Part shown: piece by piece, positions 7,849 through 46,577 of the stretch
Numbering within the stretch: position 1 is the first letter of the stretch
Layout of the letters: each line of letters starts with the position of its first letter
Source: Kiritimatiellia bacterium
GTDB taxonomy: Bacteria > Verrucomicrobiota > Kiritimatiellia > RFP12 > UBA3636
Assembly: GCA_017457625.1 (NCBI GenBank)
Contig: JAFTHC010000072.1
Location: 1 to 47,695, forward strand
Direction of reading: 5' to 3'
Length of the DNA stretch: 47,695 nucleotides
Notes under the pieces: model-generated
Databases searched by the model: none
What the model was told of the DNA's origin: nothing
Seen by the model: only the letters and a program-made list of their open reading frames with translations
Translations under genes and position numbers: made by a program

Positions 7849-9540
7849 ATGCAACTGGTCTGCCCGTCCCTGTCCCTGCGCCGTCCCCTGCCGGACGGCG
7901 GTTCTCCGCTCGTGCTCGGCCGCGCCGAGGACGCCGGGTTGCGCCTGGCCGATCCTGCGGTGTCGCGGCACCACGCGCGGCTCTCGGTTTCGGGCGGCCG
8001 GTGCATCGTGGAAGACCTCGGGAGCCGCGGCGGGACGTTTCTGGGAGGCGTGCGGCTTTCGGGCCCCGCGCCGGCCGGTCCCGGCGACGAGCTTCGGCTC
8101 GGCGGAACGGTTTTCCGATTCGAGGCCGATCCGGGCGCTCCGGCGGCCGCTCCGGCCGTGGCGGGGTCCGCGGCCGGCGGAGACGACGGCCCGCCCGATC
8201 CGCGGGAAGAGGCGCTGAAAGCCCGTTTCGCGGACGCGGCGCTGCTGTGCACGCCGGCGAACATGGCCCTGCAGAAGCGCTTCCGCGACCGGATCGTGGA
8301 GCGCATGGAGCGCTCCGCCCGGAAGGGCGACAAGGTCCTGGCCCGGTGGGAGGACCCGACCTACGGGCCGCGCCTGGAGGCGGCGCTGGACGAAATCCTG
8401 CGGGAATGCCGCCACGAAATCCCGGCGGACGTCCCGGCGGACGCCTTCCGGGCGGCCCTGCGCGACGAAATCGCCGAATACGGCCCGATCAGCCCGCTCC
8501 TGCGCGCGGACGACGTTTCCGAAATCATGGTCAACGGCCCCGGCCGCGTTTTCGCGGAAATCGGCGGTCTCCTGTTCGAGACCGGGGTCCGGTTCTTCGA
8601 CGACTCGCACCTGCTCAACCACATCAAGAACATCGCCGCCTCGGTGGGGCGGCGCGTGGACGACGCGAGCCCGATGGTCGACGCCCGCCTTCCCGACGGA
8701 TCGCGCGTCAACGCCGTCATTCCGCCGCTCGCGCTCGACGGCCCGTCCCTCACGATCCGGAAATTCCCTTCGAAGAAACTCACGGTCGACGATCTCGTCG
8801 CGTTCGGGAGCCTGTCTCCGGGCATGGCGGCGTTTCTGCGGGAGGCGGTTCTCGCGCGCAAGAACGTCGTCGTCTCCGGCGGAACCGGCTCGGGCAAGAC
8901 GACGCTGCTGAACGTGCTCTCGCAGTTCATTCCGCGCGGCGAGCGCGTCGTCACGATCGAAGACTCGGCCGAGCTCAAGCTCTCGCACCGCAACGTCGTC
9001 CGGCTCGAAGCGCGGCCGCCCAACGTCGAAGGAACGGGCCGCGTGACGATCCGCGACCTCGTCGTGAATGCGCTCCGCATGCGGCCGGACCGCATCGTCG
9101 TGGGCGAATGCCGCGGCGCTGAGGCGCTCGACATGCTGCAGGCGATGAACACGGGCCACGACGGTTCTCTCACGACGCTGCACGCCAACACGCCCCGCGA
9201 CGCGCTCTCCCGCCTGGAGAACATGGTGATGATGGCGGGCTTCGACCTCCCGTCGCAGGCCATCCGGGAGCAGATTTCCTCGGCCGTGGACGTCATCGTG
9301 CAGCAGAACCGCCTGCCGGACGGATCGCGCAAGATCGTTTCGATCGAGGAAGTCGGGGCTCCCGAAGGATCGACGATCACGCTCTCCCCCGTGTTCGTCT
9401 TCGAACCAGCCGGCCTGTCGCCGGAGGGCAAGGTCCTCGGCCGGCACGTGCCGACCGGGAACATCCCGCAATTCGTCCACGACCGCAACGCGGCCGGCAC
9501 GCTCCGCATGGACATGTCGGCGTTCGTCGAAACCGCCTGA
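7849..9540 (+). CDS. cpaF: FHA-domain fused to CpaF/TadA secretion ATPase
   Basis: FHA at the N-terminus: LVLGRAEDAGLRLADPAVSRHHARLSV...VEDLGSRGGTFLGG. ATPase motifs are Walker A GGTGSGKT (8878-8901), VVTIEDSAEL and GHDGSLTTLHAN. The first ~400 codons of track ORF 6646..9540 overlap the secretin and were rejected. Confidence 0.9.
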   Translation: MQLVCPSLSLRRPLPDGGSPLVLGRAEDAGLRLADPAVSRHHARLSVSGGRCIVEDLGSRGGTFLGGVRLSGPAPAGPGDELRLGGTVFRFEADPGAPAAAPAVAGSAAGGDDGPPDPREEALKARFADAALLCTPANMALQKRFRDRIVERMERSARKGDKVLARWEDPTYGPRLEAALDEILRECRHEIPADVPADAFRAALRDEIAEYGPISPLLRADDVSEIMVNGPGRVFAEIGGLLFETGVRFFDDSHLLNHIKNIAASVGRRVDDASPMVDARLPDGSRVNAVIPPLALDGPSLTIRKFPSKKLTVDDLVAFGSLSPGMAAFLREAVLARKNVVVSGGTGSGKTTLLNVLSQFIPRGERVVTIEDSAELKLSHRNVVRLEARPPNVEGTGRVTIRDLVVNALRMRPDRIVVGECRGAEALDMLQAMNTGHDGSLTTLHANTPRDALSRLENMVMMAGFDLPSQAIREQISSAVDVIVQQNRLPDGSRKIVSIEEVGAPEGSTITLSPVFVFEPAGLSPEGKVLGRHVPTGNIPQFVHDRNAAGTLRMDMSAFVETA

Positions 9541-10408: not shown

Positions 10409-10409
10409 G

Positions 10410-11309: not shown

Positions 11310-11328
11310 CGGGAAAGGTTTCTCGCAC

Positions 11329-12813
11329 ATGTCCGCCTCAATCCGTTTCGTGTCTGGATCGCTCGCCGGGTCGTCGTTCGGCGTCGGGGACGCCGTCGGC
11401 ATCGGCCGGTCGCGCTCGTGCGCGGTGCGGCCGGCCGAGCCGGACGTGTCCGGCCATCACGCCGTCGTCTCCCCCGGGGAAAGCGGACTTCTGCTCGAGG
11501 TTTCCGGCCGGGCCGGCGCCGTCGTAGACGGCCGCGCGGTTTCCCCGGGCGCTTCCGTCGCCCTGGCGCCCGGCGCCCGCGTCCGCCTCGGCTCCTCGCT
11601 GGAGTTCGAAGTCGCGGGCGACGCTCCCGCTGCGGACGAGACCGCGGCGGGCGAGACCGCGGCGGACGAGACCGCGGCGGACGAGACCACGGCGCCGGAC
11701 GTGGATGACGGTGCGGACGAAACGCGCGCGCTGGAAACACAGGCGGCGACGCCTGCCGAGCTGGAGCGTCTCCGGGGCATGCACCAGGCGCGCCGCCGCC
11801 GATCCGTCCTGTTCCGGGTCGCCCTCGTCGCCGCGGCCTTTCTGGCGGCCCTCGGCGTTTCGCTTTGGCGCCAGCGCGCCCCGGAAACCGAACGGCTCCT
11901 GCATCCGCGCGGCGAAAAAGGGGACACCCTGCGGACGAAGGTCGAAATCGACGCGCCCGGACCGGACGTCGCGGAGCCGCCCTTCCTGTTCGTCTACGGC
12001 GCCAATGCGCCCGTATCCCGCTCGACCGACGGCGCCGGCCGCCGCTGGACGACGGTCGGCGGCCGGCTCCGGACGAGCCGCGGCCGGGACGTCGACTTTC
12101 CCGTCCGCGCCTGCGCGTTCGACGATCCGGAGGGTCTCCGCGCGCCGCGGGAAGAGCGCTTCCGCGCGTGGCTCGAAGCGGTCGCCCCCGAACGGAACTG
12201 GACGCTGCTGGGGGAAGAGCCGCCGGCCCGGCTGCGCTTCCTCGGCGGCGAGCGGGGGCTCGGCCCCGGCATTCCCTACCGCCAGTGGCGCTACAAGACC
12301 GGCGAAGGCGGCGTGCAGCGAGACGGCCGCGTCGCCTTCTTCCGGGCCGGCCGGCGCTGCTACGCGGTCTGCTGGGAGCTCGAAAGCTCCGTGTTCGCCC
12401 TGTCCCGGCGCGCCGGCGCGCCCGGCCGGGCGCTCGAAGAGCTGGTCGTCAGCCCGTCTTCGTTCGCGGAAGGCCGGTGGGAAGGCGCGCCGGAGTCGGG
12501 CCTTTCCCCGGACCCGGCCGCGACCGCGCGCTCGCCGTTGGAATGGGAGGAGACGGAAACGCGCCTGCGGGAAGCGCTCGTGGCGGCGGCGCTCGCGGGC
12601 GAACCGACGGCCGGCACGCAGGCGGCCGCTGGGCTCTCCGCCCTGCGCCGGGCCAAGGACGCGGCGTGGAAGGACTTCTGGGCGCGCCGCGTCGAAGCGG
12701 CGCACGATCCGCGCGCGGCCGCGGCCGTCGACGCGGAGGCCGTCGCCGCGTTCCGCGGCTCCGACGACCGCCGGCGCGACCTGCTCCGCGACAAGAACTG
12801 GTGGAAGAAATGA
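11329..12813 (+). CDS. FHA-domain single-pass membrane protein with large C-terminal (predicted periplasmic) domain
   Basis: FHA: VGIGRSRSCAVRPAEPDVSGHHAVVSP. An acidic DETAA repeat is followed by TM VLFRVALVAAAFLAALGVSLW and then ~310 aa with no recognisable family. Confidence 0.8.
   Translation: MSASIRFVSGSLAGSSFGVGDAVGIGRSRSCAVRPAEPDVSGHHAVVSPGESGLLLEVSGRAGAVVDGRAVSPGASVALAPGARVRLGSSLEFEVAGDAPAADETAAGETAADETAADETTAPDVDDGADETRALETQAATPAELERLRGMHQARRRRSVLFRVALVAAAFLAALGVSLWRQRAPETERLLHPRGEKGDTLRTKVEIDAPGPDVAEPPFLFVYGANAPVSRSTDGAGRRWTTVGGRLRTSRGRDVDFPVRACAFDDPEGLRAPREERFRAWLEAVAPERNWTLLGEEPPARLRFLGGERGLGPGIPYRQWRYKTGEGGVQRDGRVAFFRAGRRCYAVCWELESSVFALSRRAGAPGRALEELVVSPSSFAEGRWEGAPESGLSPDPAATARSPLEWEETETRLREALVAAALAGEPTAGTQAAAGLSALRRAKDAAWKDFWARRVEAAHDPRAAAAVDAEAVAAFRGSDDRRRDLLRDKNWWKK
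11635..11694 (+). repeat. in-frame 15-nt tandem repeat x4 (DETAA/GETAA/DETAA/DETTA)
   Basis: The sequence reads gacgagaccgcggcg, ggcgagaccgcggcg, gacgagaccgcggcg, gacgagaccacggcg. It lies between the FHA domain and the TM helix. Confidence 0.9.
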
Positions 12814-15218
12814 GAAAACCGGCTCCCGCGCTCGAACTTTCCAAGGACGGCCGCGTGCTGTTCCGCGCCGACGCCGCCGGTTTTCCCGGGACCCTGACGA
12901 TCGGCCGGAGCCGCGAATGCGACTGGTGCCTGGCCGGCGCCGATCCGTCCGCCAGCGGCCGCCACGCGGAGGTGACCCGGCGGCGGGGTTCGTTTTACGT
13001 CCGCGATCTCGGCAGCCGCAACGGCGTTCTCGCGGACGGCGTCCGCGTCGCCTCGTGCCGGCTCCGGCCCGGCCGCCCCGTCCGGATCGGCGGCTGCGAG
13101 CTGGCCGTCGTGGCGGGCGCCGCCGCCGCCGATTCGCCGGCGTTCCACCGGATCGAGCAGACCGGCGGCCCGGAAGCGGGGCGCGCGTTCGACCTGAAGC
13201 CCGGCCCGGGTCTCGCCGTCGGCTCCGATCCGGCCTGCGACGTGGTCTGCCCCGGGCCGTTCGTCTCCCGGCGGCATCTGCTGTTCCGGCTCGACGAACG
13301 AGGCGATCCGGTCGTCGAATGCACCGGCGCGCGCAACGGCGCGACCGTGAACGGCCTGCCGCTCCTCAAGACCCAGCAGCTCGCGGACGGCGATTCGATC
13401 GTGGCGGCCGACCGGGAGTTCCGCTTCCTGGACAAAAACGTCCCCCACGTCCGCGCCGGTCTGGGGCGCAAGGCCCTCGTGGCCGGCGCGACCCTCCTGC
13501 TCGCCCTCGCCGCGCGCCAGATCTGGCTCGCGGCCCGCCCCGACGCCGGCCGCCTCCTCGACCGGGCGCGCGCCGCCGCCGCCGCCGAATCGTTTTCCGA
13601 GGCGTTCGCGCTCGCGGACGAAGCGGCCGCCGCGCGTCGCGCGCCGGTCTACGAATCCGCGCGCCGCGCCCTTCTGGCCGACCTCTCGCGCTGGACCAAC
13701 GCGATCGTCCGGTGGCGGGGTCCCGGCGACTGCGCCCGGTCGATGCTCCGGGCCCGCCGGTGGAAGGCCGCCCCCGACTACCGCTCCGGCGCGTCCGACT
13801 GGGGGTGGAACACGACGACCTCCCCCGCCATGCAGGCCGAGGAGCGCCGGGCGTTCGACCTGCTCGACGCGTTCAACGGCCCCGGCGCCGGCCGGAACCT
13901 GCTTCGCGACGAGGCCGTCGCGGGCGCCGCGGCCGATCCCGTCCTGCGGGACCGGGCCGCGGCCGCGTTCGAGGCCGCGGCCGACCGGCTCGCGGCGGCG
14001 ACGGCCGCCGTGTGGCGGGCCGCCGCGCCGCCGCCGCCGCCGGACTGGTATCTGCGGCCGCTCGTCGAATCGGCCGCCGCCGTCGAAGACGCTCTCCGCG
14101 CCGCCGCCGCCGCCAACGCCGCGCTCGACGCCCGGTTCGGCGCGCTCCGGCTCCCCGACTGCCTCGCGGCGCCGCCCGACGGCGCAGCCCGGCTCGCGCG
14201 GGATCTGGCCGCGCTCGCCTCGCAGGACGCGCAAGCGCGCGAACGCGCCGAAGAGGACCGCCGGACCGGCCGGTATCCGGTCCTGCGCCGCAGCCGCCTG
14301 CTCGCCGACCGGATCGAGGCGGCCGGGCCGGTCGTCGGCCGCCTCGTCGCGGCCGAGGCCGTTTTCGCGTCCAATCTCGCCGCGGTCGCGCGTTGCGACG
14401 GCGCGGCGTTCGCGCCGGCGCTTCCGCTGCCGGACGAGGACGACGCGCGCGCCGTCCATCCGGCGCTGGCCGGCTACGCCGCTTCGCTCGCCTCGCTGCA
14501 AGCCGACCTCGACGGCTTCCGCGTCGAATGGGATTCCGCCGCCGGCCAGCTCGCGCGCTGGGACCTGGATCCGGCCCGGCCGGCGATCCCCGGCGACATG
14601 GCGTTCCTGTTTTCGCTGGAAAAACTCCCCGCCGCGCCGCCGCGCGGCGCGCCGCTTCCGCCGGCGGGCGCCGCCGCGCCCGCCGATCCCTACGACTTCG
14701 CGGTCGGGGCCCGGGACTTCCGGGATTTCCTGGACCCCTCGATCAAGACCCGGTTCGAAACGGCGGCGACCGCCTACGTGCGCGGGTCCAAGCTGGAATC
14801 GTCCTGGAGCGGACCCGTGCCGCCGGAGCTCGCGCGGCTCGGCGTGTCGTTCGCCATGCCGCTCGTGCGGCGGACGGCCAACCGGCTCCGCGTCCTGCGC
14901 GCCGCCGCCGCCGCGCTCGACGGGACGCCCGCCCGCGATCCCCGCGGCCTGCACGCGCTCGTCCGGACCGTCCCCGACGCGCCGGGCCGCCCGAATCTGG
15001 CCGCCGGGGCGCTGCGCCTGCACGGGCTCGTGTCCGCGGCCGCGGACAAGTGGCGGCAGGGGCCGCTCTCGGCCGCCGCCGCGCCCGCCGGGCGCGACGC
15101 CGCGCTCGCCGAGGCCGTCCGCGCCCTGCTGTTTCCGCCCGCCAAGGCCGCGGAGCGCGCCGCCGCCGCGGCCCGCATCGCCGAAAAACTCGCGGCCGAC
15201 CGGGAGGAGGCGCCGTGA
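12810..15218 (+). CDS. double-FHA single-pass membrane protein with ~570 aa Ala-rich C-terminal domain
   Basis: FHA1: TIGRSRECDWCLAGADPSASGRHAEVTRRRGSFYVRDLGSRNGVLADG. FHA2: LAVGSDPACDVVCPGPFVSRRHLLFRL...GARNGATVNG. TM: ALVAGATLLLALAARQIWLAA. ATGA overlap with the previous gene. Confidence 0.8.
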   Translation: MRKPAPALELSKDGRVLFRADAAGFPGTLTIGRSRECDWCLAGADPSASGRHAEVTRRRGSFYVRDLGSRNGVLADGVRVASCRLRPGRPVRIGGCELAVVAGAAAADSPAFHRIEQTGGPEAGRAFDLKPGPGLAVGSDPACDVVCPGPFVSRRHLLFRLDERGDPVVECTGARNGATVNGLPLLKTQQLADGDSIVAADREFRFLDKNVPHVRAGLGRKALVAGATLLLALAARQIWLAARPDAGRLLDRARAAAAAESFSEAFALADEAAAARRAPVYESARRALLADLSRWTNAIVRWRGPGDCARSMLRARRWKAAPDYRSGASDWGWNTTTSPAMQAEERRAFDLLDAFNGPGAGRNLLRDEAVAGAAADPVLRDRAAAAFEAAADRLAAATAAVWRAAAPPPPPDWYLRPLVESAAAVEDALRAAAAANAALDARFGALRLPDCLAAPPDGAARLARDLAALASQDAQARERAEEDRRTGRYPVLRRSRLLADRIEAAGPVVGRLVAAEAVFASNLAAVARCDGAAFAPALPLPDEDDARAVHPALAGYAASLASLQADLDGFRVEWDSAAGQLARWDLDPARPAIPGDMAFLFSLEKLPAAPPRGAPLPPAGAAAPADPYDFAVGARDFRDFLDPSIKTRFETAATAYVRGSKLESSWSGPVPPELARLGVSFAMPLVRRTANRLRVLRAAAAALDGTPARDPRGLHALVRTVPDAPGRPNLAAGALRLHGLVSAAADKWRQGPLSAAAAPAGRDAALAEAVRALLFPPAKAAERAAAAARIAEKLAADREEAP

Positions 15219-15397
15219 ACGACCGCGGATCGGTGCTCCTGGAATACGTCGTGCTCTGCTGCTTCGTCGGCACCGCGCTCATCCTGTTCATGCATGCGAA
15301 TTTCTACAACCCCGTCGACGGGTTCGTCGGCCTCGGCCGCGATCTCGTCGCGTTCTACCAACGCTTCCAGACCCTGCTGGCCCGCCCCGTCCCGTGA
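15215..15397 (+). CDS. small Flp/TadE-type prepilin-like protein (60 aa)
   Basis: GTG start in a GTGA overlap. VNDRG-SVLLEYVVLCCFVGTALILF matches the Flp G/xxxxEY processing motif followed by a hydrophobic helix. Confidence 0.55.
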   Translation: MNDRGSVLLEYVVLCCFVGTALILFMHANFYNPVDGFVGLGRDLVAFYQRFQTLLARPVP

Positions 15398-15796: not shown

Positions 15797-16333
15797 GTGT
15801 CCCCGCTTCCCCTCGCCTTTTTCGCCGCGTGGCTCCTCGCGCTCTGCGTCTGCGATCTGCGCGCCCGCCGGCTGCCCAACGCGCTCACGCTGGGCGGCGC
15901 GGCGGTCGCGCTCGCCGCGCGGCTGGGCGCGGGGTGGCCGTCGGCCGCGCCGTTTCTGGACGGTCTGGCCGGCGGCGCGCTCGCGGCGCTGCTGCTGCTG
16001 CTGCCGTTTCTCGTCCGGGCGGCGGGCGCGGGGGACGTGAAGATGCTCTTCGCGGCCGGGTGCGCGCTCGGCCGCGGCCGGGCGGCGGGCTTTCTGCTGT
16101 TCGTTTCGCTCGCGGGGCTCGCGCTCGGACTCGTCTGGTTCCTGTCCGCCCGGTTCGACCGGCGGCGGATCCGGCATCTGGCGCGGACGCTCTTCGATCC
16201 GCGCTACGACCGCGCGGCCGGACGCGCGGCGCTGCCGCCGAAATCGGCGGAGGCGTGCCGCGTCCCGTTCGGCCTGGCCATCGCCGCCGGCGCGGCGCTC
16301 GAGCTGGCGCTGGAACCGGGAGGCGCCGCGTGA
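15797..16333 (+). CDS. cpaA: A24-family prepilin peptidase, CpaA/TadV type (no methyltransferase domain)
   Basis: Polytopic membrane protein with the two Asp motifs LCVCDLRARRLPN and AAGAGDVKMLFAAG. GTG start. Confidence 0.85.
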   Translation: MSPLPLAFFAAWLLALCVCDLRARRLPNALTLGGAAVALAARLGAGWPSAAPFLDGLAGGALAALLLLLPFLVRAAGAGDVKMLFAAGCALGRGRAAGFLLFVSLAGLALGLVWFLSARFDRRRIRHLARTLFDPRYDRAAGRAALPPKSAEACRVPFGLAIAAGAALELALEPGGAA

Positions 16334-16944
16334 AGAGGGACGGAACCGTCCTCATGGAGGCCGTGCTCTGCCTGCCGCTGCTCGTCGCGCTGTGCATGGG
16401 CGTGGTGGAGTTCACGCGCCTCTGGCAGGCGCGGTTCCTCGCGTTCCTCGCGGCCGACCACGCGGCGCGGGCGGCGCTCGTCCACAACCCGGCCGACTAT
16501 GCGGACGAAACGGGCGCGTTTCTCGAACGGGACGGCGTCGCCTGGGCGGCCGCCGTGGAAACGCTCGCCCCGCTCGCGCAACGCAGCGGCCTCGGGGCCG
16601 GCCTTTTTCCGGACCGGGCCCTCGCCGCGACCCGGACGCGCATCGTGCCGGAGAAGTCCGCCGAACGCGACGAAACCGTCGCGGTCACGGTCGAGTTCCT
16701 CGTGCCGCACCTGCTCGCGCCCGTGATTCCGCTTTCGGACGGACGCCCCGCCCCTTGGACGCTCTTTTCGCCCGCGGCCGTCACCGAAACCTGCGTCCTG
16801 CCCAAGCCGTGGTCGACGGAAGGTTTCCCGCGGCTTTCCGGCGCGGAACGCGACGTCCTGGTTCCGGTTCCGCCGGCCGCGCCGGAAGAGAGCGCCGACG
16901 ACGGTGCCGGGGAAGAATCCGGAGAAACGGAGGCGGCGTCGTGA
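16330..16944 (+). CDS. tadE: TadE-like pseudopilin
   Basis: GTGA overlap start. KRDG-TVLMEAVLCLPLLVALCMGVVEF matches the TadE N-terminal motif. Confidence 0.75.
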   Translation: MKRDGTVLMEAVLCLPLLVALCMGVVEFTRLWQARFLAFLAADHAARAALVHNPADYADETGAFLERDGVAWAAAVETLAPLAQRSGLGAGLFPDRALAATRTRIVPEKSAERDETVAVTVEFLVPHLLAPVIPLSDGRPAPWTLFSPAAVTETCVLPKPWSTEGFPRLSGAERDVLVPVPPAAPEESADDGAGEESGETEAAS

Positions 16945-19574
16945 GCCTCGCGCGCCCGTTTCTCGGCTCGATCCGGCGTCTTGCGCGCGACGAAAACGGC
17001 GCGGCTCTCGCGTTCACGCTCGGCGCCGTACTCTTCCTCTACGTGTTCTGCGGCGGCGCCTACATGGCCGGCGAAACGATCCGCCGCAAGGCCGAACTGC
17101 AGAACGCCTGCGACGCGGCCGCCTACTCCGCGTCCGTCGTCCAGGCCGACGTCCTTTCACGCATGGCCGTCCTCAACCGCGCCATGTCCTGGTCCTACGT
17201 CCAGATGACGCGCGCCCAGATGGACGCCATCGTCTACCGCTGGCTCGACCTGACGCGGTGGCGCTTCCGGCAGGACCTCGCGGGCATCGGGCACAGGGAC
17301 TTCGTTTCGTCGCTTTTTGCCGGCAAGAACGCCGGATATTCGCACATCGGCCACACGCCGATCGGATGTAATTTTGGCGTCGGCGGCATCGGCTGCCGCG
17401 AAGGTCTTCACGACGACAAGGATTACGGCTTTTCCCACTACATCGGCATGGGTCCGCGCAAGGACGAACTGTTCCGGGTCCGCGTCGGCTACCGCGCCGG
17501 CACGTATCTGGTCTGGAACGGGAGCGGCGACTTCGACTACGAGGTCGACGGCGAAACCATCGCGCGCGGCGTGATCGGGCAGCTGGAGAAAGGCGGCGGC
17601 GGCGAGGGCGTTCCCGGCATCGCGTCCGTCGTGGCCGCGAACCGCCTGGCCGTGTCCCTGTGCAACGGGATGCTCGCCTGGGAAAACCGGCAGATGGGTC
17701 CGGCGATCCAGGAAACGGCGCGGCTCGCGCTGCTTCTCAACCTGCCGCGCGACGCGAACGGCGACGTGCCGGCCGGCCTCGCGGACGACTACGCGGCGGT
17801 CATCGTGCCGGGCGTTTCGCCCGCGCCGCCCGAGTACCGGGATGCCGACGCGGACGCGGACGGCGCCGTCGCGTCCGGCTACTTCCGCGCACTGCACAAC
17901 ACGGAAGAAGACGAACTGCGGTTTCTCGCGATGGCGGACGGCGTTCCGCCGGAGCGCGCCGGGGACCTGCGCCTCGTGGACTACTTTTCGCCGTCGTCGG
18001 GGAACGGGGGGCGGCGCCTTGCGGGCGGTCTCGACCAGTGGTTCGTCCGGTGCGCCGTCGACGAACCGGAACAAGACCGGCTGGACGTCGTCCGGAAATG
18101 GTCCGCCCCCGCCCCCTACATCGCCCGCGGCTACAAAAACGCCAATTACGGCGAAGGCGCCAGCGCCGGCTCCCTCGCGCAGAAGGCGACGGGGCTCGGC
18201 GTCGACATCCACCGGGGCAACTACGTCTTCGACGGAACGGACGTTGCCGGCTTGATCGGCGCAATCGGGAAAAACGGATTTCCCAAGCTCTCCAAATTCC
18301 TTGCAGACAAACCTTCCTCCCCATGGAAGAAGGCATTTTGGCGCGCAGCCCGATTATTGATGCAGAAAATCGACGATGCGGTTTCGCCCTTCCGGAGCGT
18401 TGCCGATTCCTGGCGCAAAGCGGTCCTCAACGTTGTCGGCCGAATCGCTTCGACGGACGTGGAACCATCCTGCATCAACGTCCGGTCGCGTTTTCCCGAC
18501 CAGTGCGAAACGCCGAATGAAACCTACGGGCTCGTGTCCGAATACGAGTGGGCGACGGCGAACTGGATCTGCTGCTGGCTCAACGTCAAATACTGCAAGT
18601 TCTGCATCCACGTCCCGCTCCCCATCGCGGCCATCCACGGCGGCGCGGCCGGCGACGGCTACGGGTCGTCCGGGCAGCCGCTTTCATGGCTCGGGGAAGA
18701 GATCAAGGCGATCAAGAAAGGCGGCGGCCATTCCCGGAGCGCCTACCGCTCCACGTTCATCGGATTGGACGGCGAATTTCCGACGGCGTGCGGCCATCCC
18801 GGCGGCGTGAACGGCCGGGGCGCCAACATGCTTCTCAAGGGCTACGTCCGGATCTACGGCGACGACCGCCGTCTCCTCGTGCCGGCGGCCCGGGACCTCT
18901 ACGTCGGCGAACCGGCCAAACCGTGGATTCTCGGCGACGAATACTTCGCCGGCGGCGGCACGACCGTCGTGGGCCTGGCGCGCAAGACCCGCAACGTCTT
19001 CGAGACGTTTCTCGGACCGATCGCCCCGCCCGGGCTCTACGGCGCCTTCGAGCCGGACACGAACGCCGCGCCCCGCCTCGTCGCCTTCTCCGCCGCGCGG
19101 GCCGGATACGCGCGGCGGACCGGGGACGGACTGGCGGACGGAGCCGATTCCGTCAACGCGGGCAACCCGCCTTCGCCGCGCTGGGAAACCGTCGCGGGAC
19201 ACGAGGCGGACGGGCCCGCCCCGCGTCTGCCCGACGGCATGAACGCGGCGCTCCGCGCCCGTCTGGCCGCCGCGCGCATCGGCTGCGTGTGCGGCCCTGC
19301 CTCGGCCGCCGCGCTGCGGCACGGCTGGAACCTCTCGCAGACCGACTGGAACGGCCAGCTTCTCCCCCTGCGCCACGCCTTCGCCGGAACGGACGACGCC
19401 GGCGACTGGGAATGGGACGACGGCGCCGCCCTGCGGCGGCTTCTCGAGCGCCTCGTCTCGGCCGACGCCGTCTGGAAAAGCCTCGGCGAGGGCGACGGCG
19501 GCTCCCTGGAAAGCATCCTCGGAACGAATCCCGACACCGTTTTCAACCTTCTCCTGAAACGCCGAATCCTCTAG
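16941..19574 (+). CDS. tadG: large TadG-like pilus-associated protein (877 aa)
   Basis: GTGA overlap start. N-terminus ARDENGAALAFTLGAVLFLYVFCGGAYMAGETIRRKAELQNACDAAAYSASV resembles the TadG/Tad N-terminal domain. Cys cluster: CINVRSRFPDQCE...WICCWLNVKYCKFCIH. Confidence 0.75.
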   Translation: MSLARPFLGSIRRLARDENGAALAFTLGAVLFLYVFCGGAYMAGETIRRKAELQNACDAAAYSASVVQADVLSRMAVLNRAMSWSYVQMTRAQMDAIVYRWLDLTRWRFRQDLAGIGHRDFVSSLFAGKNAGYSHIGHTPIGCNFGVGGIGCREGLHDDKDYGFSHYIGMGPRKDELFRVRVGYRAGTYLVWNGSGDFDYEVDGETIARGVIGQLEKGGGGEGVPGIASVVAANRLAVSLCNGMLAWENRQMGPAIQETARLALLLNLPRDANGDVPAGLADDYAAVIVPGVSPAPPEYRDADADADGAVASGYFRALHNTEEDELRFLAMADGVPPERAGDLRLVDYFSPSSGNGGRRLAGGLDQWFVRCAVDEPEQDRLDVVRKWSAPAPYIARGYKNANYGEGASAGSLAQKATGLGVDIHRGNYVFDGTDVAGLIGAIGKNGFPKLSKFLADKPSSPWKKAFWRAARLLMQKIDDAVSPFRSVADSWRKAVLNVVGRIASTDVEPSCINVRSRFPDQCETPNETYGLVSEYEWATANWICCWLNVKYCKFCIHVPLPIAAIHGGAAGDGYGSSGQPLSWLGEEIKAIKKGGGHSRSAYRSTFIGLDGEFPTACGHPGGVNGRGANMLLKGYVRIYGDDRRLLVPAARDLYVGEPAKPWILGDEYFAGGGTTVVGLARKTRNVFETFLGPIAPPGLYGAFEPDTNAAPRLVAFSAARAGYARRTGDGLADGADSVNAGNPPSPRWETVAGHEADGPAPRLPDGMNAALRARLAAARIGCVCGPASAAALRHGWNLSQTDWNGQLLPLRHAFAGTDDAGDWEWDDGAALRRLLERLVSADAVWKSLGEGDGGSLESILGTNPDTVFNLLLKRRIL

Positions 19575-19591
19575 AACGCCACGCCACCACG

Positions 19592-20632
19592 ATGAAACGA
19601 ACGATACCGATCCTGCTCTGCGCCGCGGGCGCGCTGGCCGCCGCCCGGGCGGCCGAGCCGCCGGCCGCGCCGGACGCCGCGCCGGACACCGCGCTCGCCG
19701 GCCGCGGCACGCTGGTCGCGGCCTGGGCGGATTCCTTCCGCCGCACGGCGGCGACGAACGCCGCCGCGCTGCCCAACGCCTTCGAGCCCGCCGCCGCCGC
19801 CCGCTGGGCGGACGGCCCGGCCCGCGAACTCACGGCCGCGCTGCAGGCCGACTTTTTCGCGGGCGCCCACGTGCTGCTGGGCCCGTTCGGCGAAACGGAC
19901 GCGCTCGTCGCCTTCCACAACCCGTTCTGGGACGCGCTGCTCTTCGTGGAAACGGGCGGCGGATATCTTCCCGGATCGCCGGACAAGGCCGGTTCGTTCC
20001 GGCCCGGAAAGGTCGTCCGTTTCCGCTGGATCGACGGCGAAACGTTCCGCGGATCGACCGTGGCCCCGGGCGGACCGTTTGCGCTCGGCGTCCTCCGCGC
20101 GCAGGCGGCCACGGTGCGCCGCTTCGACGAACGGTTCCCCGACGCGGACGGATCCGCGTTTCTGGACGACGCCGCGCTCGGCGTCGCGCCCGCGGACGGC
20201 GACGCGGCCGCGTGGACCCGCATCCTGGACGGCCCCGCCGTGCGGCTCCGGGCCGGCCTGGCGCTTGCGACCAACCGCATGGACCGCGCCGTCGCCGGAC
20301 GCTGCGAAGAGCTGCTCCGCCGCGGTTCCGCGCCGGCGCTGCGGCGCCATTTCGCGGACGGCGCGCACGCGCGTTTCCGGGATTCGTTCCTCCGCCTGCC
20401 GCCCGCCATGCGCGAGGGGTTCTCGCTCTACGGCTACGTCCCGGGCGGGGACGGCTCTCTCTTCCTGTTCGTGAACGAAGACGTCCCGCGCCTGTTCGCG
20501 ACCGTTTCGATGCCGCGCGGCCGCACGCGCGACGCCGCAAGCGGCGAACCGGCGTTCGAGTGGTATGACCTGCGCGAAGCGGCACGCTACCTGAAGGCCG
20601 TGCGCGAAGCCGGAAAGGAGGAACCGCAATGA
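19592..20632 (+). CDS. secreted protein, unknown function (translationally coupled to the lipase gene)
   Basis: Signal peptide MKRTIPILLCAAGALAAARA. No family recognised. Its stop overlaps the lipase start (ATGA at 20629-20632). Confidence 0.7.
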   Translation: MKRTIPILLCAAGALAAARAAEPPAAPDAAPDTALAGRGTLVAAWADSFRRTAATNAAALPNAFEPAAAARWADGPARELTAALQADFFAGAHVLLGPFGETDALVAFHNPFWDALLFVETGGGYLPGSPDKAGSFRPGKVVRFRWIDGETFRGSTVAPGGPFALGVLRAQAATVRRFDERFPDADGSAFLDDAALGVAPADGDAAAWTRILDGPAVRLRAGLALATNRMDRAVAGRCEELLRRGSAPALRRHFADGAHARFRDSFLRLPPAMREGFSLYGYVPGGDGSLFLFVNEDVPRLFATVSMPRGRTRDAASGEPAFEWYDLREAARYLKAVREAGKEEPQ

Positions 20633-22692
20633 GAAAGAGCGTGTTCCACGCGGCGGCGGCCGCCGCCGCGCTGCTCCTCGCGATCCCCGCGGAAGGCTCC
20701 CTCTCGAACGTCTTCAGCGGTCTGGCGGGCAACGCGGTCTCGGAATTCTTCTACGATCCGCCGAGCGGCGTCGTCAAAGTCCCGTGGTTCGGTTCCTGCC
20801 CCGATTTCGAATCGAACCACTCGGCCGCCGAACGGCAGCGCGTCGCGGACATGGGGGTTCTCGCCGAAGCCGCCTACCAGGACGGGAAGAAACCTCCCGC
20901 CGGCTACTCGGCCCTTTCGCCCAAGGAGGCCGCGAAACTGGCCGGACCGGGCTTTTCCGTAGCCGAGGACGGGACCGTCTCCCTGTCGGGCGTCAAGTGG
21001 GCGTCCGGCTTCGACGCGGTGCTCTACCGCAACGACCGGACGGGGGAAATCACGGTCGCGTTCCGCGGCACGGAGCTCACGTCTCCCGGCGACATCGCGA
21101 CGGACATCGCCCAAATCGGCACCGGCTCCGTTCCGGCCCAATACAAGGCCGCCGCGGAGCTGCTCCGCAACGTCCTGGCGGGCACGGACGGCCCCGTCTC
21201 CGTCGCCGGCCATTCGCTCGGCGGCGGCCTTGCGCAATACGCGGTCGCCGCCAATTCGCCCGGGTCCGCGTCGCGGCTCTCCGGCTACACGTTCAACTCC
21301 GCCGGCCTCTCCCACGCCGTCGTGGATTCCCTGCCCGACGCCGCCCGCGAGTCCGCCGCCGCGCGGATGACCAACGTCCGCAACGACGGCGACAGCGTGA
21401 GTTTCTTCGGCTGCCACCTCGGCACGATGTATGACGTCCCGAACGACGGCTTTTTCGCCCACTCCGTTTCGATCCTGAACCGCAATCTCGTCGGCAAGGA
21501 CCAGCTGCCGGCGGAAATCGCGGACGCCGCGGGCGGCAACGGCTTTGCGGGGATTCTCGACAACCTGCGCGACGGGTTCGCGGCGATGTTCCCGGACGGT
21601 CTTTCCGGCGAACTGGCCGCCGCCGCCGAGGACTGGCTCCGCGCCTGGGCGGAACGCGAAGCGGCGCGTCTGGCCGGAAAACTCGACGAAGCGCTCGAGC
21701 GCGAGCTGGCGCGGCTCGAGAAACGGTTTCTCGGGCTCCTGCCCGAAGGCCCGGCCCGCGAGGCCGGCTCCCGCCTCGTCTCCGACCTGAAGGCCGGCAA
21801 CTGGGACGCGCTCGCCGGCGACGCCCTGGACGTCGGCCTGGGCGCCGGCGAAACCGCGCTCCGCGACTCGCTCGAGCGCCTCGGCATCCACGGCGACGAG
21901 CAGGACGCCATCGTGAAAGGCGCGCGGGACGCCGTCGACGCGGCCATCGCGGGCGGCGATCCCGTTTCGGCGATCGGCGACGCGGCGCGGGGCTACGTCG
22001 ACGGAAAAATCCGGGAACGGTTCGGGGACGACGTCGCCGACAAGTTCGGAAAACTCTGGGACGCCGCCTTGGGCGAAGGCGATCCGTGGGTCGCACTCGG
22101 CGATTTCGTCGACTCGGTCGAGGTCTGGGCGTTCGACAAGTTCGAAGAGAAGGTCGAAAACTTCCTCCGCGGCGAGCTGGACGGCCTGTTCGCCCGCCAT
22201 CCCGAGTTGACGGAAATGTTCGGCCTCTCGACGGACAAGCTCATGGCTCTCGGCGGCAACGTCTGGGGCATCGTGACGGGCGACGGGACGCTGGCGGAAA
22301 AACTCGGCGCCGTCGCGGATCTGGTCGCCGACACGCTCGCCGAAGCGTTCGAAACCTTCGTCGACTGGGCCATCGGAAAGGCCCTCGAACAACTTGACGC
22401 CATCGTGTCGAAAATCTCGGAAGCCGTCGAAAAAGCCGTGCAGAAGATACTCGACGGCGTCAACCGGCTCGTCGACAAGGCCAACGAGCTCGTCGACAGG
22501 TGGAACGCCGCCTGCGACTCCTACCTGAAAAAGCTCGACAAGATCCTCGCCGGCGCCGGGCGCGTGGCCACGGTCCTCGGCGGCGAGGACTGGGCCGAAA
22601 TCTCCGAAGGCATCCAAAACGCGCGCCGGAACGTCCGGCTCCTCCACTTGGATCGGATTCCGCACGTCGCCATCCCGCCCGCGACCCCGTGA
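20629..22692 (+). CDS. secreted class-3-lipase-like alpha/beta hydrolase with ~400 aa helical C-terminal extension
   Basis: Signal peptide AAAALLLAIPAEG. ITVAFRGTE ... VSVAGHSLGGGLAQYA, with the nucleophile Ser codon at 21214-21216. Candidate triad residues are Asp in VRNDGDSVSFF and His in FFAHSVS. The C-terminal half is Asp/Glu/Ala/Leu-rich and helical. Confidence 0.8.
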   Translation: MRKSVFHAAAAAAALLLAIPAEGSLSNVFSGLAGNAVSEFFYDPPSGVVKVPWFGSCPDFESNHSAAERQRVADMGVLAEAAYQDGKKPPAGYSALSPKEAAKLAGPGFSVAEDGTVSLSGVKWASGFDAVLYRNDRTGEITVAFRGTELTSPGDIATDIAQIGTGSVPAQYKAAAELLRNVLAGTDGPVSVAGHSLGGGLAQYAVAANSPGSASRLSGYTFNSAGLSHAVVDSLPDAARESAAARMTNVRNDGDSVSFFGCHLGTMYDVPNDGFFAHSVSILNRNLVGKDQLPAEIADAAGGNGFAGILDNLRDGFAAMFPDGLSGELAAAAEDWLRAWAEREAARLAGKLDEALERELARLEKRFLGLLPEGPAREAGSRLVSDLKAGNWDALAGDALDVGLGAGETALRDSLERLGIHGDEQDAIVKGARDAVDAAIAGGDPVSAIGDAARGYVDGKIRERFGDDVADKFGKLWDAALGEGDPWVALGDFVDSVEVWAFDKFEEKVENFLRGELDGLFARHPELTEMFGLSTDKLMALGGNVWGIVTGDGTLAEKLGAVADLVADTLAEAFETFVDWAIGKALEQLDAIVSKISEAVEKAVQKILDGVNRLVDKANELVDRWNAACDSYLKKLDKILAGAGRVATVLGGEDWAEISEGIQNARRNVRLLHLDRIPHVAIPPATP

Positions 22693-23423
22693 GAACGACA
22701 GCGCCGGCCCCGGCCGCGCGCGGCCGCAGAGAAGGAACCGTCCTCATGGAGACGGTTCTCGTCCTGCCCGTCTACCTGGCGCTTCTCGGCGGACTGTTCA
22801 TCGTCGGGGACGTGCTGGTCGGGCGGCTGCGGCTTTCTTCGATGGACCGGCTCGCCGCGTGGCGCGGCGATTCGCCGCACCAGGCGTCCGTCCGGGACGT
22901 CTACGCCGGCCGGATCGCCGATCCGGACGACCCGGGAAGCGGGGCGTCCATGATCCTGGACGAGGCGCGCACGTGGGCGCTCGACCCGAGCGCCGATCCG
23001 GACGGGACCGCGAGCGGCGGCGGCTCCGCCGCCGTCGAACTGGCCGGCAACGGCTGGGCCGATCTGGTCTACGGCCGCGCGGACGCGGAAGTGGACGTCC
23101 CGTTCTGGGTCGGGGCGGCCAACGCGCCCCTTCTGTCCGATCCGGACGCGGCCGGACGCTTCCGGTTCCAGTCCAGGGCGGTCCTGTATCCGGGCATGGC
23201 CGGCGGCGAGTCGGGCCGCGTTTTTCTCGTGCGCCGGCGAACCGCGCCGGATCCGGCCGTTCCGCGGCGGGACGCGACCGCCGCCGCCTTGGCCACGACC
23301 TGGGCGGCCGTCGTCGCCGATCCGCTGCCCGGCCTGCGGACGGCGCCGGCCGTCGCCTCGCCGGCGGGCGACGGCGCGGGAACTTACGTGCGGCATCCCG
23401 TGGCCGTCGCGTTGGGAGAATGA
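22689..23423 (+). CDS. second TadE-like pseudopilin
   Basis: GTGA overlap start. RREG-TVLMETVLVLPVYLALLGGLFIV has the same G-TVLME motif as the 16330 gene. Confidence 0.7.
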   Translation: MRTTAPAPAARGRREGTVLMETVLVLPVYLALLGGLFIVGDVLVGRLRLSSMDRLAAWRGDSPHQASVRDVYAGRIADPDDPGSGASMILDEARTWALDPSADPDGTASGGGSAAVELAGNGWADLVYGRADAEVDVPFWVGAANAPLLSDPDAAGRFRFQSRAVLYPGMAGGESGRVFLVRRRTAPDPAVPRRDATAAALATTWAAVVADPLPGLRTAPAVASPAGDGAGTYVRHPVAVALGE

Positions 23424-23427
23424 CGCG

Positions 23428-23901
23428 ATGAAGGTTCCGTTTTTCGCAGTCGCCCTCGCGGCCGCGGCGGCCGTGGCCGCCGACTTCCGGATGCCGCCGT
23501 CGTTCCGGCCGCTCGCTTCGGACGACACCGGCCGGACCTGGAAGGAAACGGGCGCGATCGCGCAGCCCTTCGCGGCGGCGCTCGCGACCGTCCGCGCCGC
23601 GTTCGACGCGCAGGGATGGACCGTCGAGCGCGAATTCGCTCCAGAAGGGGGCGCCGATTCTTCGCGCATGTTCCAGTGCGCGTCCGGCGATGCCGGCATC
23701 CTGCTCCTCGCCCTCCGCGATTCGCCCACGAACACCTTCGTTTCCTGGGGATTCCTCTCGCGCGGAGGGGAGAATGGTTCCCACGCGGAGGGCGCGGAGG
23801 TCGAATCTCACGCGGAGGGCGCGGAGTCCGCGGAGGGGGCGGAGAGTGAAGGTAGGGACGGCTCCACGAGCCGTCCGAAACCGGAAGAAGAAAAGGAATG
23901 A
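23428..23901 (+). CDS. small secreted protein with acidic repeat tail
   Basis: Signal peptide MKVPFFAVALAAAAAVAA, a ~95 aa globular part, then the tail SHAEGAEVESHAEGAESAEGAESEG (DNA repeat about 23781-23850). Its stop overlaps the radical SAM start. Confidence 0.65.
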   Translation: MKVPFFAVALAAAAAVAADFRMPPSFRPLASDDTGRTWKETGAIAQPFAAALATVRAAFDAQGWTVEREFAPEGGADSSRMFQCASGDAGILLLALRDSPTNTFVSWGFLSRGGENGSHAEGAEVESHAEGAESAEGAESEGRDGSTSRPKPEEEKE

Positions 23902-25139
23902 ACGACATGTCCATCACCCTCTCCCTCACGCACGACTGCAACCTGCGCTGCTCCTACTGCTACGCGGGACGGAAGAGCCATCGCGCGATGACTCGCGCGA
24001 CGATGCAGCGGGCGCTCGAATGGGCGGTCGGCTACCACAAGGCCCATGCGCTCGGGCGGAATTTCGTCCTCGGCTTCTTCGGCGGCGAGCCGCTGCTGGA
24101 ATGGGATCTTCTGCGCGAGGCGGACGCGCTGGCGGAACGACTCTGCCGCGAGGCCGGTCTGGAACTGCGCCGGACGCTCACGACGAACGGAACGCTGCTG
24201 GACGAAGAGAAGGCGCGCTGGCTGACGGAACGCCACTACACGATCGGTCTTTCGCTGGACGGCCCGCCGGAGCGCCATGACCGGTTCCGCCGGCACGCCG
24301 ACGGGAGCGGATCCTACGCCGAGGCCGTCCGCGCCGTCCGGCTGCTTTCGCCGTATCGGGAGCCGTGTCCGGAATTCAACTGCGTCGTCCGGCCCGATTC
24401 GCTCGAATCCGTGCCGGAGGCCGTCCGGCACCTGGCGGCGCTGGCCGGCTTCCCGATCGCGCTCAATCCCGATTTCACGGCCGCATGGAAGCCATCCGAC
24501 CGCGAGCCCTTCCGCCGGGCCTACGGCGAGGTGGCCGATTTCTGCGTTTCCGAATGGCGCGAGGGGAGGCCTCTGCACGTCACGTGGATCGACGCCAAGT
24601 TGAAGACGCTCCTGATGGACGGCTACCGCGAACAGGACCGGTGCTGCCCGGTGAGGAGAGAGCTGGCCGCTGCGCCGTCGGGCAACCTGTATCCCTGCCC
24701 GAACCTCGTGGGCGAGGACGACCGCGCCGACCTGCGGCTTGGCGACGTGTTCTCGGGGATTGACGCGGAGGCGCTCCGCAAGGCGCTTTCGCGGTGCGGT
24801 TCGTCCCTGCCGGCCTGCAAGTCGTGTCCCGTCGCCCCGCGCTGCCAGAACTGGTGCGGATGCGCCAACTGGTTCTCGACCGGCCGCACGGACGCCGTCT
24901 CGCCGTTCCAGTGCTTTTACGAAAAGACGACGATCGAACTCGCGGACCGGGTCGCCGAGACCCTTCTCGCAGAGAAGTGCGAACCGTTCCTCGCCCACTT
25001 CGGCGAGTTCATCCGGGTCGCCGCGCCGGAAGTCGCCGCCGAAGTCTCGGGCGCCGCCCGAAGCCCGTCCGCCTCCCTCCCTCAACCCCAACCCCGCGGG
25101 TCGCGGGCGGACGCGGCGGATGCCGCGCCCGCCACGTGA
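23898..25139 (+). CDS. radical SAM enzyme with SPASM-type C-terminal Cys clusters (anSME-like)
   Basis: CNLRCSYC (CX3CX2C) at 23937-23960. GGEPLL. C-terminal clusters: CCPVRRELAAAPSGNLYPCP and CKSCPVAPRCQNWCGC. Confidence 0.9.
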   Translation: MNDMSITLSLTHDCNLRCSYCYAGRKSHRAMTRATMQRALEWAVGYHKAHALGRNFVLGFFGGEPLLEWDLLREADALAERLCREAGLELRRTLTTNGTLLDEEKARWLTERHYTIGLSLDGPPERHDRFRRHADGSGSYAEAVRAVRLLSPYREPCPEFNCVVRPDSLESVPEAVRHLAALAGFPIALNPDFTAAWKPSDREPFRRAYGEVADFCVSEWREGRPLHVTWIDAKLKTLLMDGYREQDRCCPVRRELAAAPSGNLYPCPNLVGEDDRADLRLGDVFSGIDAEALRKALSRCGSSLPACKSCPVAPRCQNWCGCANWFSTGRTDAVSPFQCFYEKTTIELADRVAETLLAEKCEPFLAHFGEFIRVAAPEVAAEVSGAARSPSASLPQPQPRGSRADAADAAPAT

Positions 25140-39602: not shown

Positions 39603-39778
39603 GTCGGGCGCTCCTGGAATGGGAAAGGGTGGAGGTGTCTGTTGCGCCGCCAATGCTAGCAAAACCCGCGCCCGCCCGCAAGGGCGAGATTCCGGTTGCG
39701 CCGCGGCGGCGGTTGTGCTACGATTCAACCGACCCGCGGGAAAGCCGCGGGCGACACCCCCTTCGGCGGAAAAAGCCC

Positions 39779-41041: not shown

Positions 41042-41071
41042 CGCGGAACGACTTCGAGACACTTCAAGACC

Positions 41072-42079: not shown

Positions 42080-42104
42080 GGGCGGGCCGGAACGGAGAAA
42101 GACC

Positions 42105-42860: not shown

Positions 42861-42872
42861 CCGCTTCGCGGC

Positions 42873-42929
42873 GTTCGCAGGTTCGCAAGTTCGCAGTCAC
42901 AAGTTCGCAAGTTCGAAAATCCGCAAGTT
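42873..42929 (+). repeat. array of GTTCGCA(A/G) octamers immediately upstream of a pseudopilin gene
   Basis: GTTCGCA occurs at 42873, 42881, 42889 (8-nt period) and 42903, with GTTCGAA at 42911 and CGCAAGTTT at 42923. This is a lower-GC island ending 3 nt before the ATG at 42933. Confidence 0.6.
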
Positions 42930-42932
42930 TCC

Positions 42933-43709: not shown

Positions 43710-43753
43710 CGCGGAGAGAGTTGCGGAACCGGACAACCCGACGGAAAGCAGAC

Positions 43754-44590: not shown

Positions 44591-44638
44591 TTTTCCCCCT
44601 CTCCCCGGAAACGCCACCAGGCATCGAGGACTTCCATC

Positions 44639-45322: not shown

Positions 45323-45356
45323 AGCGCCGGACCCGGCGACCGAAAGACCGAATGAC

Positions 45357-46031: not shown

Positions 46032-46059
46032 GGCGGGCCGCAAACAGGGAGAATCATCC

Positions 46060-46560: not shown

Positions 46561-46577
46561 CGGAGAAAGGCAGTCCC

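Follow-up and report, generated by a model that had tools for sequence, protein, structure and literature searches.

Tad pili are adhesion organelles and, in predators, contact-killing devices whose payloads have not been found (PMC8460266, PMC12075869). In Myxococcus xanthus, the Kil system comprises a single, FHA-fused ATPase (KilF) and several FHA proteins, and no toxic payloads were found for it (PMC8460266); the tips of Tad and Kil pili consist of TadE/F/G-like heterotrimers (KilL/M/N), with effectors still to be found (PMC12075869). Here we describe a pair of overlapping genes, X and Y, within a Tad-type pilus operon of a Kiritimatiellia bacterium (contig JAFTHC010000072.1 of assembly GCA_017457625.1; the window analysed is the whole stretch of 47,695 nucleotides). 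Y encodes a secreted protein with a lipase head and a long helical tail, the conserved core of which we call YC, and X encodes its secreted partner.

Two further systems invite comparison. The Enterobacter cloacae Tle (PDB 7UBZ), an effector of the type VI secretion system (T6SS), has phospholipase A1/A2 activity and a Ser-Glu-His triad; it acts in the periplasm and is neutralised by the ankyrin protein Tli (PMC11470151). Among type IVb (T4b) pili, TcpF of the Vibrio cholerae toxin-coregulated pilus (TCP) and CofJ of the CFA/III pilus of enterotoxigenic Escherichia coli (ETEC) are operon-encoded, Sec-dependent and soluble, and they are exported with the N-terminal peptide of the secreted protein bound to the tip minor pilin (PMC9565799). 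In the literature searched, we found no precedent for the combination seen in the locus described here, a lipase-headed modular protein that, together with a dedicated partner, lies inside a Tad minor-pilin block accompanied by FHA and kinase genes and is conserved, with swapped heads, across classes of the Planctomycetes-Verrucomicrobia-Chlamydiae (PVC) group. No published case of a Tad-linked lipase was found there either.

Y joins a class-3 lipase head to a helical tail

The window has a G+C content of ~70 %, and long spurious open reading frames (ORFs) run through it in all frames. The plus-strand operon is nevertheless singled out by its codon-position G+C, the third-position value (GC3) being 0.80-0.91 for every listed gene. 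As the X and Y frames reach a GC3 of 0.87-0.88 versus 0.71-0.77 in the minus-strand mirror ORFs, and as homologues of both were detected down to about 25-40 % identity, X and Y are real genes. An AGGAGG is located 8 nt 5' of the Y start. The N-terminus of Y, MRKSVFHAAAAAAALLLAIPAEG, is the sole hydrophobic 19-mer window of the protein and was judged by eye to be a Sec signal; equivalent N-termini are present in the Y homologues.

The head of Y is an Mbeg1-like, class-3 alpha/beta hydrolase. The Pfam Mbeg1-like family (PF11187) matched residues 127-234 with 41.6 bits (cutoff 21.1, E 1.3e-10), the match to Lipase_3 was sub-threshold, and PF26363 ('Phospholipase-like') is a precomputed annotation on a protein that is 95 % identical to Y (P0001 in our numbering). 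When the family profile was compared with the PDB, the sole solved relative was the T6SS lipase effector 7ubz_B, the E. cloacae Tle (E 5.8e-9). In the AlphaFold2 (AF2) model, the predicted local distance difference test (pLDDT) of residues ~45-290 was mostly 70-91, and a Foldseek search with this part of the model retrieved feruloyl esterase A (1uza) and fungal class-3 lipases, including that of Rhizomucor, at E 7e-6 to 1e-3 and a probability of 1.0.

The catalytic triad, Ser196-Asp255-His278, is intact and conserved. We aligned 15 homologues, including distant Tad-linked ones and one PAAR-fused T6SS lipase; the nucleophile lies in GHSLGGGLAQYA (residues 194-205), and the columns of Ser196 and Asp255 are kept throughout. 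The equivalent of His278 was read by eye in the 14 Tad-linked sequences as a loose xH[SG][IV] motif that follows the final beta strand and varies in the residue behind the His. The Ser-to-Asp spacing of 59 residues agrees with that of class-3 lipases. His263 was considered as the catalytic His and rejected in favour of His278, being conserved in the close clade only; membership of the SA1320 family was likewise rejected (53 bits versus a cutoff of 230, covering only the first 93 of 644 profile positions). The lipase domain of Y is a new member of a known family, and it likely acts as a phospholipase or esterase on membrane lipids. Of note, a distant Mbeg1-like protein of 824 aa (P0006) is encoded immediately behind a cluster of MoxR AAA, DUF58 and transglutaminase genes (L004:1689-12475; related loci are cited by our own numbers), which makes this a third genomic context of the lipase domain.

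Behind the head, residues ~310-672 are all-helical in the AF2 prediction. This stretch is rich in A (15.7 %), L (12.1 %), G (11.6 %), D (10.1 %) and E (8.2 %), its mean helical hydrophobic moment is 1.08 versus 0.60 in the head, and residues 555-649 are predicted to form one single helix. Searches of the tail against Pfam, NCBIfam and the PDB returned only sub-threshold matches to helical proteins (apolipoprotein, DUF445, PspA), and these were treated as compositional effects.

An earlier description of this stretch, made from its letters alone (the sequence-only reading), had proposed much of this architecture. The 687-aa product with a signal peptide is found on translation and, by eye, in the hydrophobicity; the AFRGTE block (residues 144-149) and the Ser codon at 21214-21216 are where that reading had placed them; and the Asp of NDGDSVSF and the His of FAHSV follow the Ser in Y. 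Its class-3 lipase or Mbeg1-like pattern agrees with Pfam, the PDB profile search and Foldseek, and the triad, whose conservation in homologues it had named as a test of the assignment, is kept (Ser196 and Asp255 in 15 of 15, the His278 equivalent in the 14 read by eye). The acidic helical extension, which it had put at ~400 aa, measures about 390 aa, and the preceding 346-aa signal-peptide gene does overlap the start of Y by ATGA (20629-20632).

Two features of the Y family were noted in passing. In some Y proteins a short hydrophobic motif of small residues stands at the mature N-terminus, directly after the signal peptide (at ~20698-20760 in the window, and in L001, L008, L009, L013, L014 and L017; for example LSNVFSGLAGNAV, LVSDFFSSFASSV and LLSSFFSSFGSAV). 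The motif was seen in about 12 of 24 Y proteins, both lipase-headed and helix-only, and the rest, about half of the family, lack it; it might act as a docking peptide, which is suggestive only. Furthermore, the Y proteins at L003:4125-6692 and L023 ~9990-12520 carry CxC-rich inserts between head and tail (for example CPCGSGCKCEKC and CYCASGCSCRHC), and L023 also holds a radical-SAM gene.

X begins MKRTIPILLCAAGALAAARAAEPP, and its N-terminus reads MKRTIPILLCAAGALAAARA/AEPP. The protein had no match in Pfam (including the foldase family) or NCBIfam, a PDB profile search gave noise only, and a Foldseek search of its model against the PDB returned nothing at E <= 0.001; weak Foldseek hints of NTF2-, cystatin- or IcmL-like folds were not trusted. 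A comparison of X with itself for an internal duplication was negative (hhalign probability 0.7 %). We also considered a lipoprotein signal and rejected it by eye, as ILLC is no lipobox and stands too early in the sequence. An exhaustive search of 1.84e9 proteins found 123 representatives of the X family, nearly all 320-400 aa long and with signal-like N-terminal segments. X and YC are two uncharacterised protein families with a clear genetic context.

X tracks the tail of Y, whichever head Y carries

Word-based protein searches retrieved few relatives, on contigs ordered TadE, TadG-like, X, Y, TadF-like, small protein and ATPase. A scan of the GTDB representative genomes with the lipase alignment found nothing, its patterns being too narrow. 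A genome scan with the X alignment yielded 14 loci (L007-L020), 13 of them labelled as Kiritimatiellae/-ia, Lentisphaeria/-ae, Victivallales or Verrucomicrobia metagenome-assembled genomes (MAGs) and one in an unclassified record; rumen or gut samples appear in many of the record titles. Scanning metagenomes with the lipase alignment contributed seven loci in which X accompanies a lipase-bearing Y, one further locus with Y-TadF whose upstream end is truncated, and many loci with the lipase only.

The gene order proved highly recurrent. Peptidase-TadE-TadG-X-Y-TadF-...-ATPase2(-kinase) was found in L001-L003, L007-L013, L015-L025 and L027-L028, several of which are partial contigs, and local phmmer mapping extended it to TadB-TadC-FHA1-FHA2-Flp-...-TadE-TadG-X-Y-TadF-...-ATPase2(-kinase) throughout the related loci; ~20 independent metagenome loci of Kiritimatiellia, Lentisphaeria and Victivallales hold TadG-X-Y-TadF. 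X lies directly 5' of Y wherever both are visible on a contig, with the exception of L086 (a gap of ~0.8 kb), and the ATGA overlap is retained in at least 8 of the 14 loci from the genome scan. X is followed by a large secreted ORF of 451-1188 aa (in L086 within ~0.8 kb) and then, in the operon loci, by TadF; L016 and L009 have an extra ORF between Y and TadF, and the orphan locus L014 has no TadF. Among the loci examined we saw neither orphan X genes nor X arrays, a Y-type ORF always following X.

To relate X, the lipase domain and YC to one another, we tabulated the 90 loci that match any of the three. The great majority (65) have the lipase domain only, with neither X nor YC; eight have all three, and 11 have X and YC with no detectable Mbeg1 head. 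X alone was found in two loci (L018 and L019), lipase plus X in three whose contigs end inside Y, and lipase plus YC in one whose contig starts inside Y. The tail was detected with a hidden Markov model (HMM) trained solely on the tails of lipase-bearing Y proteins, which, in 10 loci without an Mbeg1 head, matched 270-340 aa at the C-terminus of Y with scores of 58-121 bits, the highest score among 714 decoys, shuffled or reversed, being 17.6 bits; L020 and L003 gave weaker matches (27-30 bits). Because of the 65 lipase-only loci and the 11 loci with X and YC but no Mbeg1 head, X is the partner of the conserved tail and not of the lipase. YC is the module that defines the Y family.

The heads themselves are diverse. 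The clade of the window carries the Mbeg1 lipase, and L015 a divergent one (hhalign probability 93 %, E 2.5e-7, GHSEGGG). L020 has a different alpha/beta hydrolase with HG...GHSYGS...LDPA motifs, which weakly resembles pancreatic lipase (1eth, E 1.7e-3) and matches Pfam Lipase below the threshold. In 9 of the 11 loci with X and YC but without an Mbeg1 head, Y is purely helical; the Y proteins of L008-L014 and L017 are of this kind and gave sub-threshold apolipoprotein-like matches, and that of L016 gave a weak glycine-zipper match. The Y slots of L018 and L019 (L018:5162-8038 and L019:10845-13799) encode proteins of 958 and 984 aa in which a Trp comes first after cleavage (AMA/WEAAVHAKG); these gave no family match and no YC match, in the presence of X and Tad genes. 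The Trp start had suggested by eye a phospholipase C-like head, an idea that was dropped as no search supported it.

One cassette stands apart from any pilus operon. At L014:9992-13140, in a Victivallales MAG, X and Y lie amid unrelated metabolic genes, with no Tad genes. X-Y is a mobile two-gene unit, and the orphan cassette recalls the tip clusters that are scattered outside the kil loci of Myxococcus.

X and Y are embedded among the minor-pilin genes of a Tad operon

The sequence-only reading had placed the pair, translationally coupled, inside a pilus operon, and our annotation agrees: the minor-pilin block runs peptidase, TadE, TadG-like, X, Y, TadE/F-like, the last of these starting with a GTG at 22689 that overlaps the Y stop by GTGA, as had been described. 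The coordinates of all features are collected in the table below.

Features of the X-Y pair and of the surrounding Tad operon in the window
Feature	Position	Strand	Description and evidence
X	19592..20632	+	346 aa secreted protein; start ATG 19592, stop TGA 20632; partner directly upstream of Y
Y	20629..22692	+	687 aa; start ATG 20629, stop TGA 22692; secreted, modular: signal peptide, lipase head, conserved helical tail
Predicted Sec signal peptide of Y	20629..20697	+	Residues 1 to about 23; hydrophobicity, read by eye
Mbeg1-like / class-3 lipase alpha/beta-hydrolase domain	20761..21498	+	Residues ~45-290; Pfam PF11187, PDB profile, Foldseek
Ser196 codon	21214..21216	+	TCG, nucleophile in GHSLGGG; invariant in 15/15 aligned homologues
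Asp255 codon	21391..21393	+	GAC in NDGDSV, catalytic acid candidate; column kept in 15/15 homologues
His278 codon	21460..21462	+	CAC in FAHSV, catalytic His candidate; loose motif in 14 Tad-linked sequences
YC, conserved core of C-terminal helical domain	21676..22578	+	Residues ~350-650, amphipathic, acidic; HMM, helical moment
CpaB-like	5452-6168	+	Operon annotation
Secretin-like	6224-7831	+	Weak Pfam match
TadA/CpaF-type ATPase with N-terminal FHA	7849..9540	+	Pfam FHA E 3.9e-15, T2SSE E 1.2e-64
TadB and TadC	9554-11309	+	Operon annotation
Two FHA-domain proteins	11329-12813 and 12810-15218	+	Domain searches
Flp-type major pilin candidate	15215..15397	+	60 aa, G/SVLLEY motif; homologues at same position in other loci; no Pfam match
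Prepilin peptidase, TadV-like	15797..16333	+	Pfam Peptidase_A24 E 2.7e-15
TadE pseudopilin	16330..16944	+	Pfam TadE 28.4 bits, above cutoff; GTGA overlaps on both sides
TadG-like large minor pilin	16941..19574	+	877 aa; Pfam Tad (PF13400) 20.9 bits vs cutoff 22.3; directly upstream of X
TadE/TadF-like pseudopilin	22689..23423	+	GTG start overlaps Y stop; G/TVLME processing motif; Pfam TadE 15.6 bits, sub-threshold
Small secreted protein	23428-23901	+	Operon annotation
Radical-SAM/SPASM maturase	23898-25139	+	Domain searches
Second TadA-like ATPase	25156..26220	+	Without FHA domain; conserved downstream of X-Y block in related loci
Secreted protein of unknown family	26234-27292	+	352 aa; signal peptide; no family match
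Ser/Thr kinase	28179..30857	+	Two kinase domains; operon end; domain search

Many neighbouring genes overlap by 4 nt (FHA2/Flp, peptidase/TadE, TadE/TadG, X/Y, Y/TadF and small protein/radical-SAM). In the operon loci the TadG-like gene is kept upstream of X (E 1e-53 to 1e-152), and orthologues of the TadE/F-like gene directly follow Y in other loci except L014, L016 and L009.

With the Kil system this operon shares an ATPase with an N-terminal FHA domain, extra FHA proteins, a secretin that matches Pfam poorly and a TadE/TadG/TadF-like block, a likeness of gene content and domain signature. It differs in its hosts, gut and rumen bacteria of the PVC group here versus predatory Myxococcota or Bdellovibrionota, and in having two ATPases, a Ser/Thr kinase, and X and Y between the TadG-like and TadF-like genes. 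Canonical Tad systems typically have a single ATPase. Homologues of the kinase were found in L008, L010, L012, L013, L017 and L022, and the kinase or PP2C and FHA proteins resemble the threonine-phosphorylation switch of some T6SS.

Several further observations concern single genes. If its start is the GTG that overlaps the preceding stop, the Flp-like candidate has an unusually short leader (VNDRG/SVLLEY). The Ser/Thr kinase (28179-30857) has a long Pro-rich linker, and L001:6671-7537 encodes a PP2C phosphatase at the equivalent place. The best NCBIfam match of the radical-SAM/SPASM protein (23898-25139) is a PapB-type ranthipeptide maturase at 172 bits, below the cutoff of 340, and such a gene is present in only some of the lipase-bearing loci (the window, L021, L023 and L024). 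The secreted protein of 26234-27292 combines an acidic, variable N-terminus with a highly conserved C-terminal part of ~135 aa that includes RSN...W[EQ]R. Farther downstream, 39542-47693 holds a separate GspF/PilC-like gene, behind which stand five or more genes whose products are long pseudopilins with prepilin N-termini; one of these weakly matches the Verru_Chthon cassette protein D family; the G+C of this region is ~62 % versus ~70 % in the Tad operon.

Cargo, structural part or toxin

The reading we favour, to which we would give a little less than even confidence, is that Y is exported by Sec and is a modular cargo of the Tad-type pilus machine or a protein associated with its tip, X being the partner of Y. 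That the enzyme is cargo or pilus-associated had been suggested by the sequence-only reading, and the TadG-X-Y-TadF order in roughly 20 loci makes this a reasonable proposal. The same reading had X neutralise or escort the lipase; co-occurrence contradicts the first role in so far as it is lipase-specific, and escort appears to be the better fit.

Under this proposal, the YC tail would link Y with the machine, with the tip pilins (TadE/TadG/TadF-like) or with a target membrane, and the N-terminal head would be exchangeable, the lipase serving as the warhead in this Kiritimatiellae lineage. X would be a periplasmic partner, produced in a fixed ratio with Y through the ATGA-coupled start; acting as a holdase, chaperone or adaptor, X would bind the conserved tail and hold Y in a soluble or inactive state before passing it to the pilus. 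Extension of the pilus through the secretin might then expose or release Y, by analogy with TcpF and with the exoproteins of the pseudopilus of the type II secretion system (T2SS). TcpF/CofJ secretion is the closest mechanistic precedent for the proposed Y export: the proposed common ground is an operon-encoded, Sec-dependent soluble protein exported by a type IV pilus, and the hydrophobic motif at the mature N-terminus of about half of the Y proteins might be a counterpart of the TcpF/CofJ peptide. The pili, however, are of the T4b type there and of the type IVc (T4c)/Tad type here, and there is no sequence homology. We know of no enzymatic head on TcpF or CofJ and of no dedicated partner like X for them. 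For X itself, LipA-Lif of Pseudomonas and Burkholderia offers a parallel, in which a periplasmic foldase of ~340 aa is encoded beside a lipase secreted by the T2SS. The two cases have in common a secreted lipase whose neighbouring gene encodes a periplasmic protein of about 340 aa and, as proposed here, a pilus-like secretion machine; however, X has no foldase match and also pairs with lipase-less Y proteins, and Y is not a family I.1/I.2 lipase.

Several points weigh against this proposal. In nine loci Y is helix-only, so that the ancestral role of Y may be structural and not effector-like. The AF2 model of X is poor (pLDDT 57), and that of the Y tail (pLDDT 35-69) is too poor for use; the tail is, moreover, strongly acidic (net charge -28) and has no hydrophobic or transmembrane segment, giving no clear support for membrane insertion. 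X is present in L018 and L019, where the HMM detects no YC in Y. No mechanism of self-protection against a periplasmic phospholipase was identified, and the source organisms, uncultured anaerobes of gut and rumen, are not known to antagonise or prey on other organisms.

The alternatives differ in how they fare against the same loci. That X and Y are an effector-immunity pair, with Y a lipase toxin and X a periplasmic immunity protein blocking its active site, is suggested by the kinship of the lipase domain with an antibacterial T6SS phospholipase that has a periplasmic immunity protein, and by X being periplasmic, adjacent to Y and translationally coupled to it. Indeed, Y shares with Tle the catalytic domain family (profile E 5.8e-9), the alpha/beta hydrolase fold, the nucleophile elbow and a Ser-acid-His triad. 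Yet Y has a Sec signal, a ~390-aa helical tail and a Tad context, with no PAAR, VgrG or Hcp, and no T6SS genes were found in the annotated part of the window; X is not related to the ankyrin protein Tli, nor does it follow the lipase domain. X-Y thus has neither the delivery determinants of T6SS Tle-Tli pairs nor an immunity gene that travels with the toxin domain. X occurs in 11 loci without a detectable Mbeg1 head and is missing from 65 lipase loci without YC, a closer, PAAR-fused relative of Y (P0007) sits in a T6SS cluster where the immunity gene is an unrelated ankyrin, X was seen neither as an orphan gene nor in arrays, and X stands upstream of Y, the usual place of adaptors or chaperones. 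As X tracks YC whatever head Y has, X is not a lipase-specific immunity protein, and we consider an effector-immunity pair highly improbable; a chaperone or adaptor for the tail would fit better. Should the lipase have a specific accessory or immunity factor after all, it could instead be the secreted product of 26234-27292, which carries a signal peptide, varies in its position within the cluster and belongs to a family present in all 7 assessable loci that carry the close Mbeg1 lipase (the window, L001, L003, L022-L024 and L028) and in none of the 13 loci L008-L020. Gene and lipase head are, however, confined to the same clade, where shared ancestry may explain the link; L015, with its divergent Mbeg1 head, lacks the gene, the C-terminal 135 aa are unusually conserved for an immunity protein (~60 % identical versus 26-39 % for the lipases), and no family or structure match was found in Pfam, NCBIfam or the PDB, which together leave this role improbable.

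A purely structural explanation is less easily set aside, though we regard it as unlikely. X and Y could be structural or assembly parts of the pilus, or a PilY1-like non-pilin tip adhesin, with no toxin function: the helical protein would serve as stalk, ruler or scaffold, and the head would bind or process lipid surfaces or remodel the cell's own outer membrane. The nine loci with a helix-only Y, the position of X and Y between minor-pilin genes that are no more conserved than they are, and the single helix of 95 residues predicted at 555-649 all speak for it, but the orphan L014 cassette and the repeated swaps of enzymatic heads look like accessory cargo, and a length range of 451-1188 aa for Y is hard to square with a fixed structural role. 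It is also conceivable, if quite improbable, that Y is an ordinary secreted digestive lipase which leaves the cell by another route, such as the T2SS- or type IV pilus (T4P)-like cluster at 39.5-47.7 kb, as Y has a plain Sec signal and the downstream DNA, at a distance of 17 kb, holds a GspF/PilC-like gene together with many pseudopilin genes. Against this stands the placement of Y, located between TadG and TadF and overlapping the gene on either side by 4 nt; because this overlapping placement is conserved across three PVC classes, Y is not expected to be a passenger gene.

Returning to the proposal of a Sec-exported cargo with X as its partner, a bolder version of it would see in these loci a Tad-derived delivery machine of the PVC group, gated by FHA proteins and the kinase, with polymorphic cargo in the tip block and X as a dedicated periplasmic adaptor. 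Its cargo would combine a helical docking tail with exchangeable heads, namely at least two Mbeg1-type lipases and possibly a third, unrelated lipase type. We put this forward tentatively, as a possibility that is rather doubtful; if true, it would be a pilus-borne counterpart of the polymorphic effectors of T6SS and would provide the first identified enzymatic payload class for a Tad/Kil-like pilus.

In these bacteria, then, a phospholipase-type enzyme is wired into the tip-pilin genes, and its tail and partner recur in three PVC classes with different heads. If Y is delivered by the pilus, this would supply a concrete candidate payload class together with a docking module, and the known range of FHA-ATPase Tad systems would come to include abundant anaerobes of gut and rumen.

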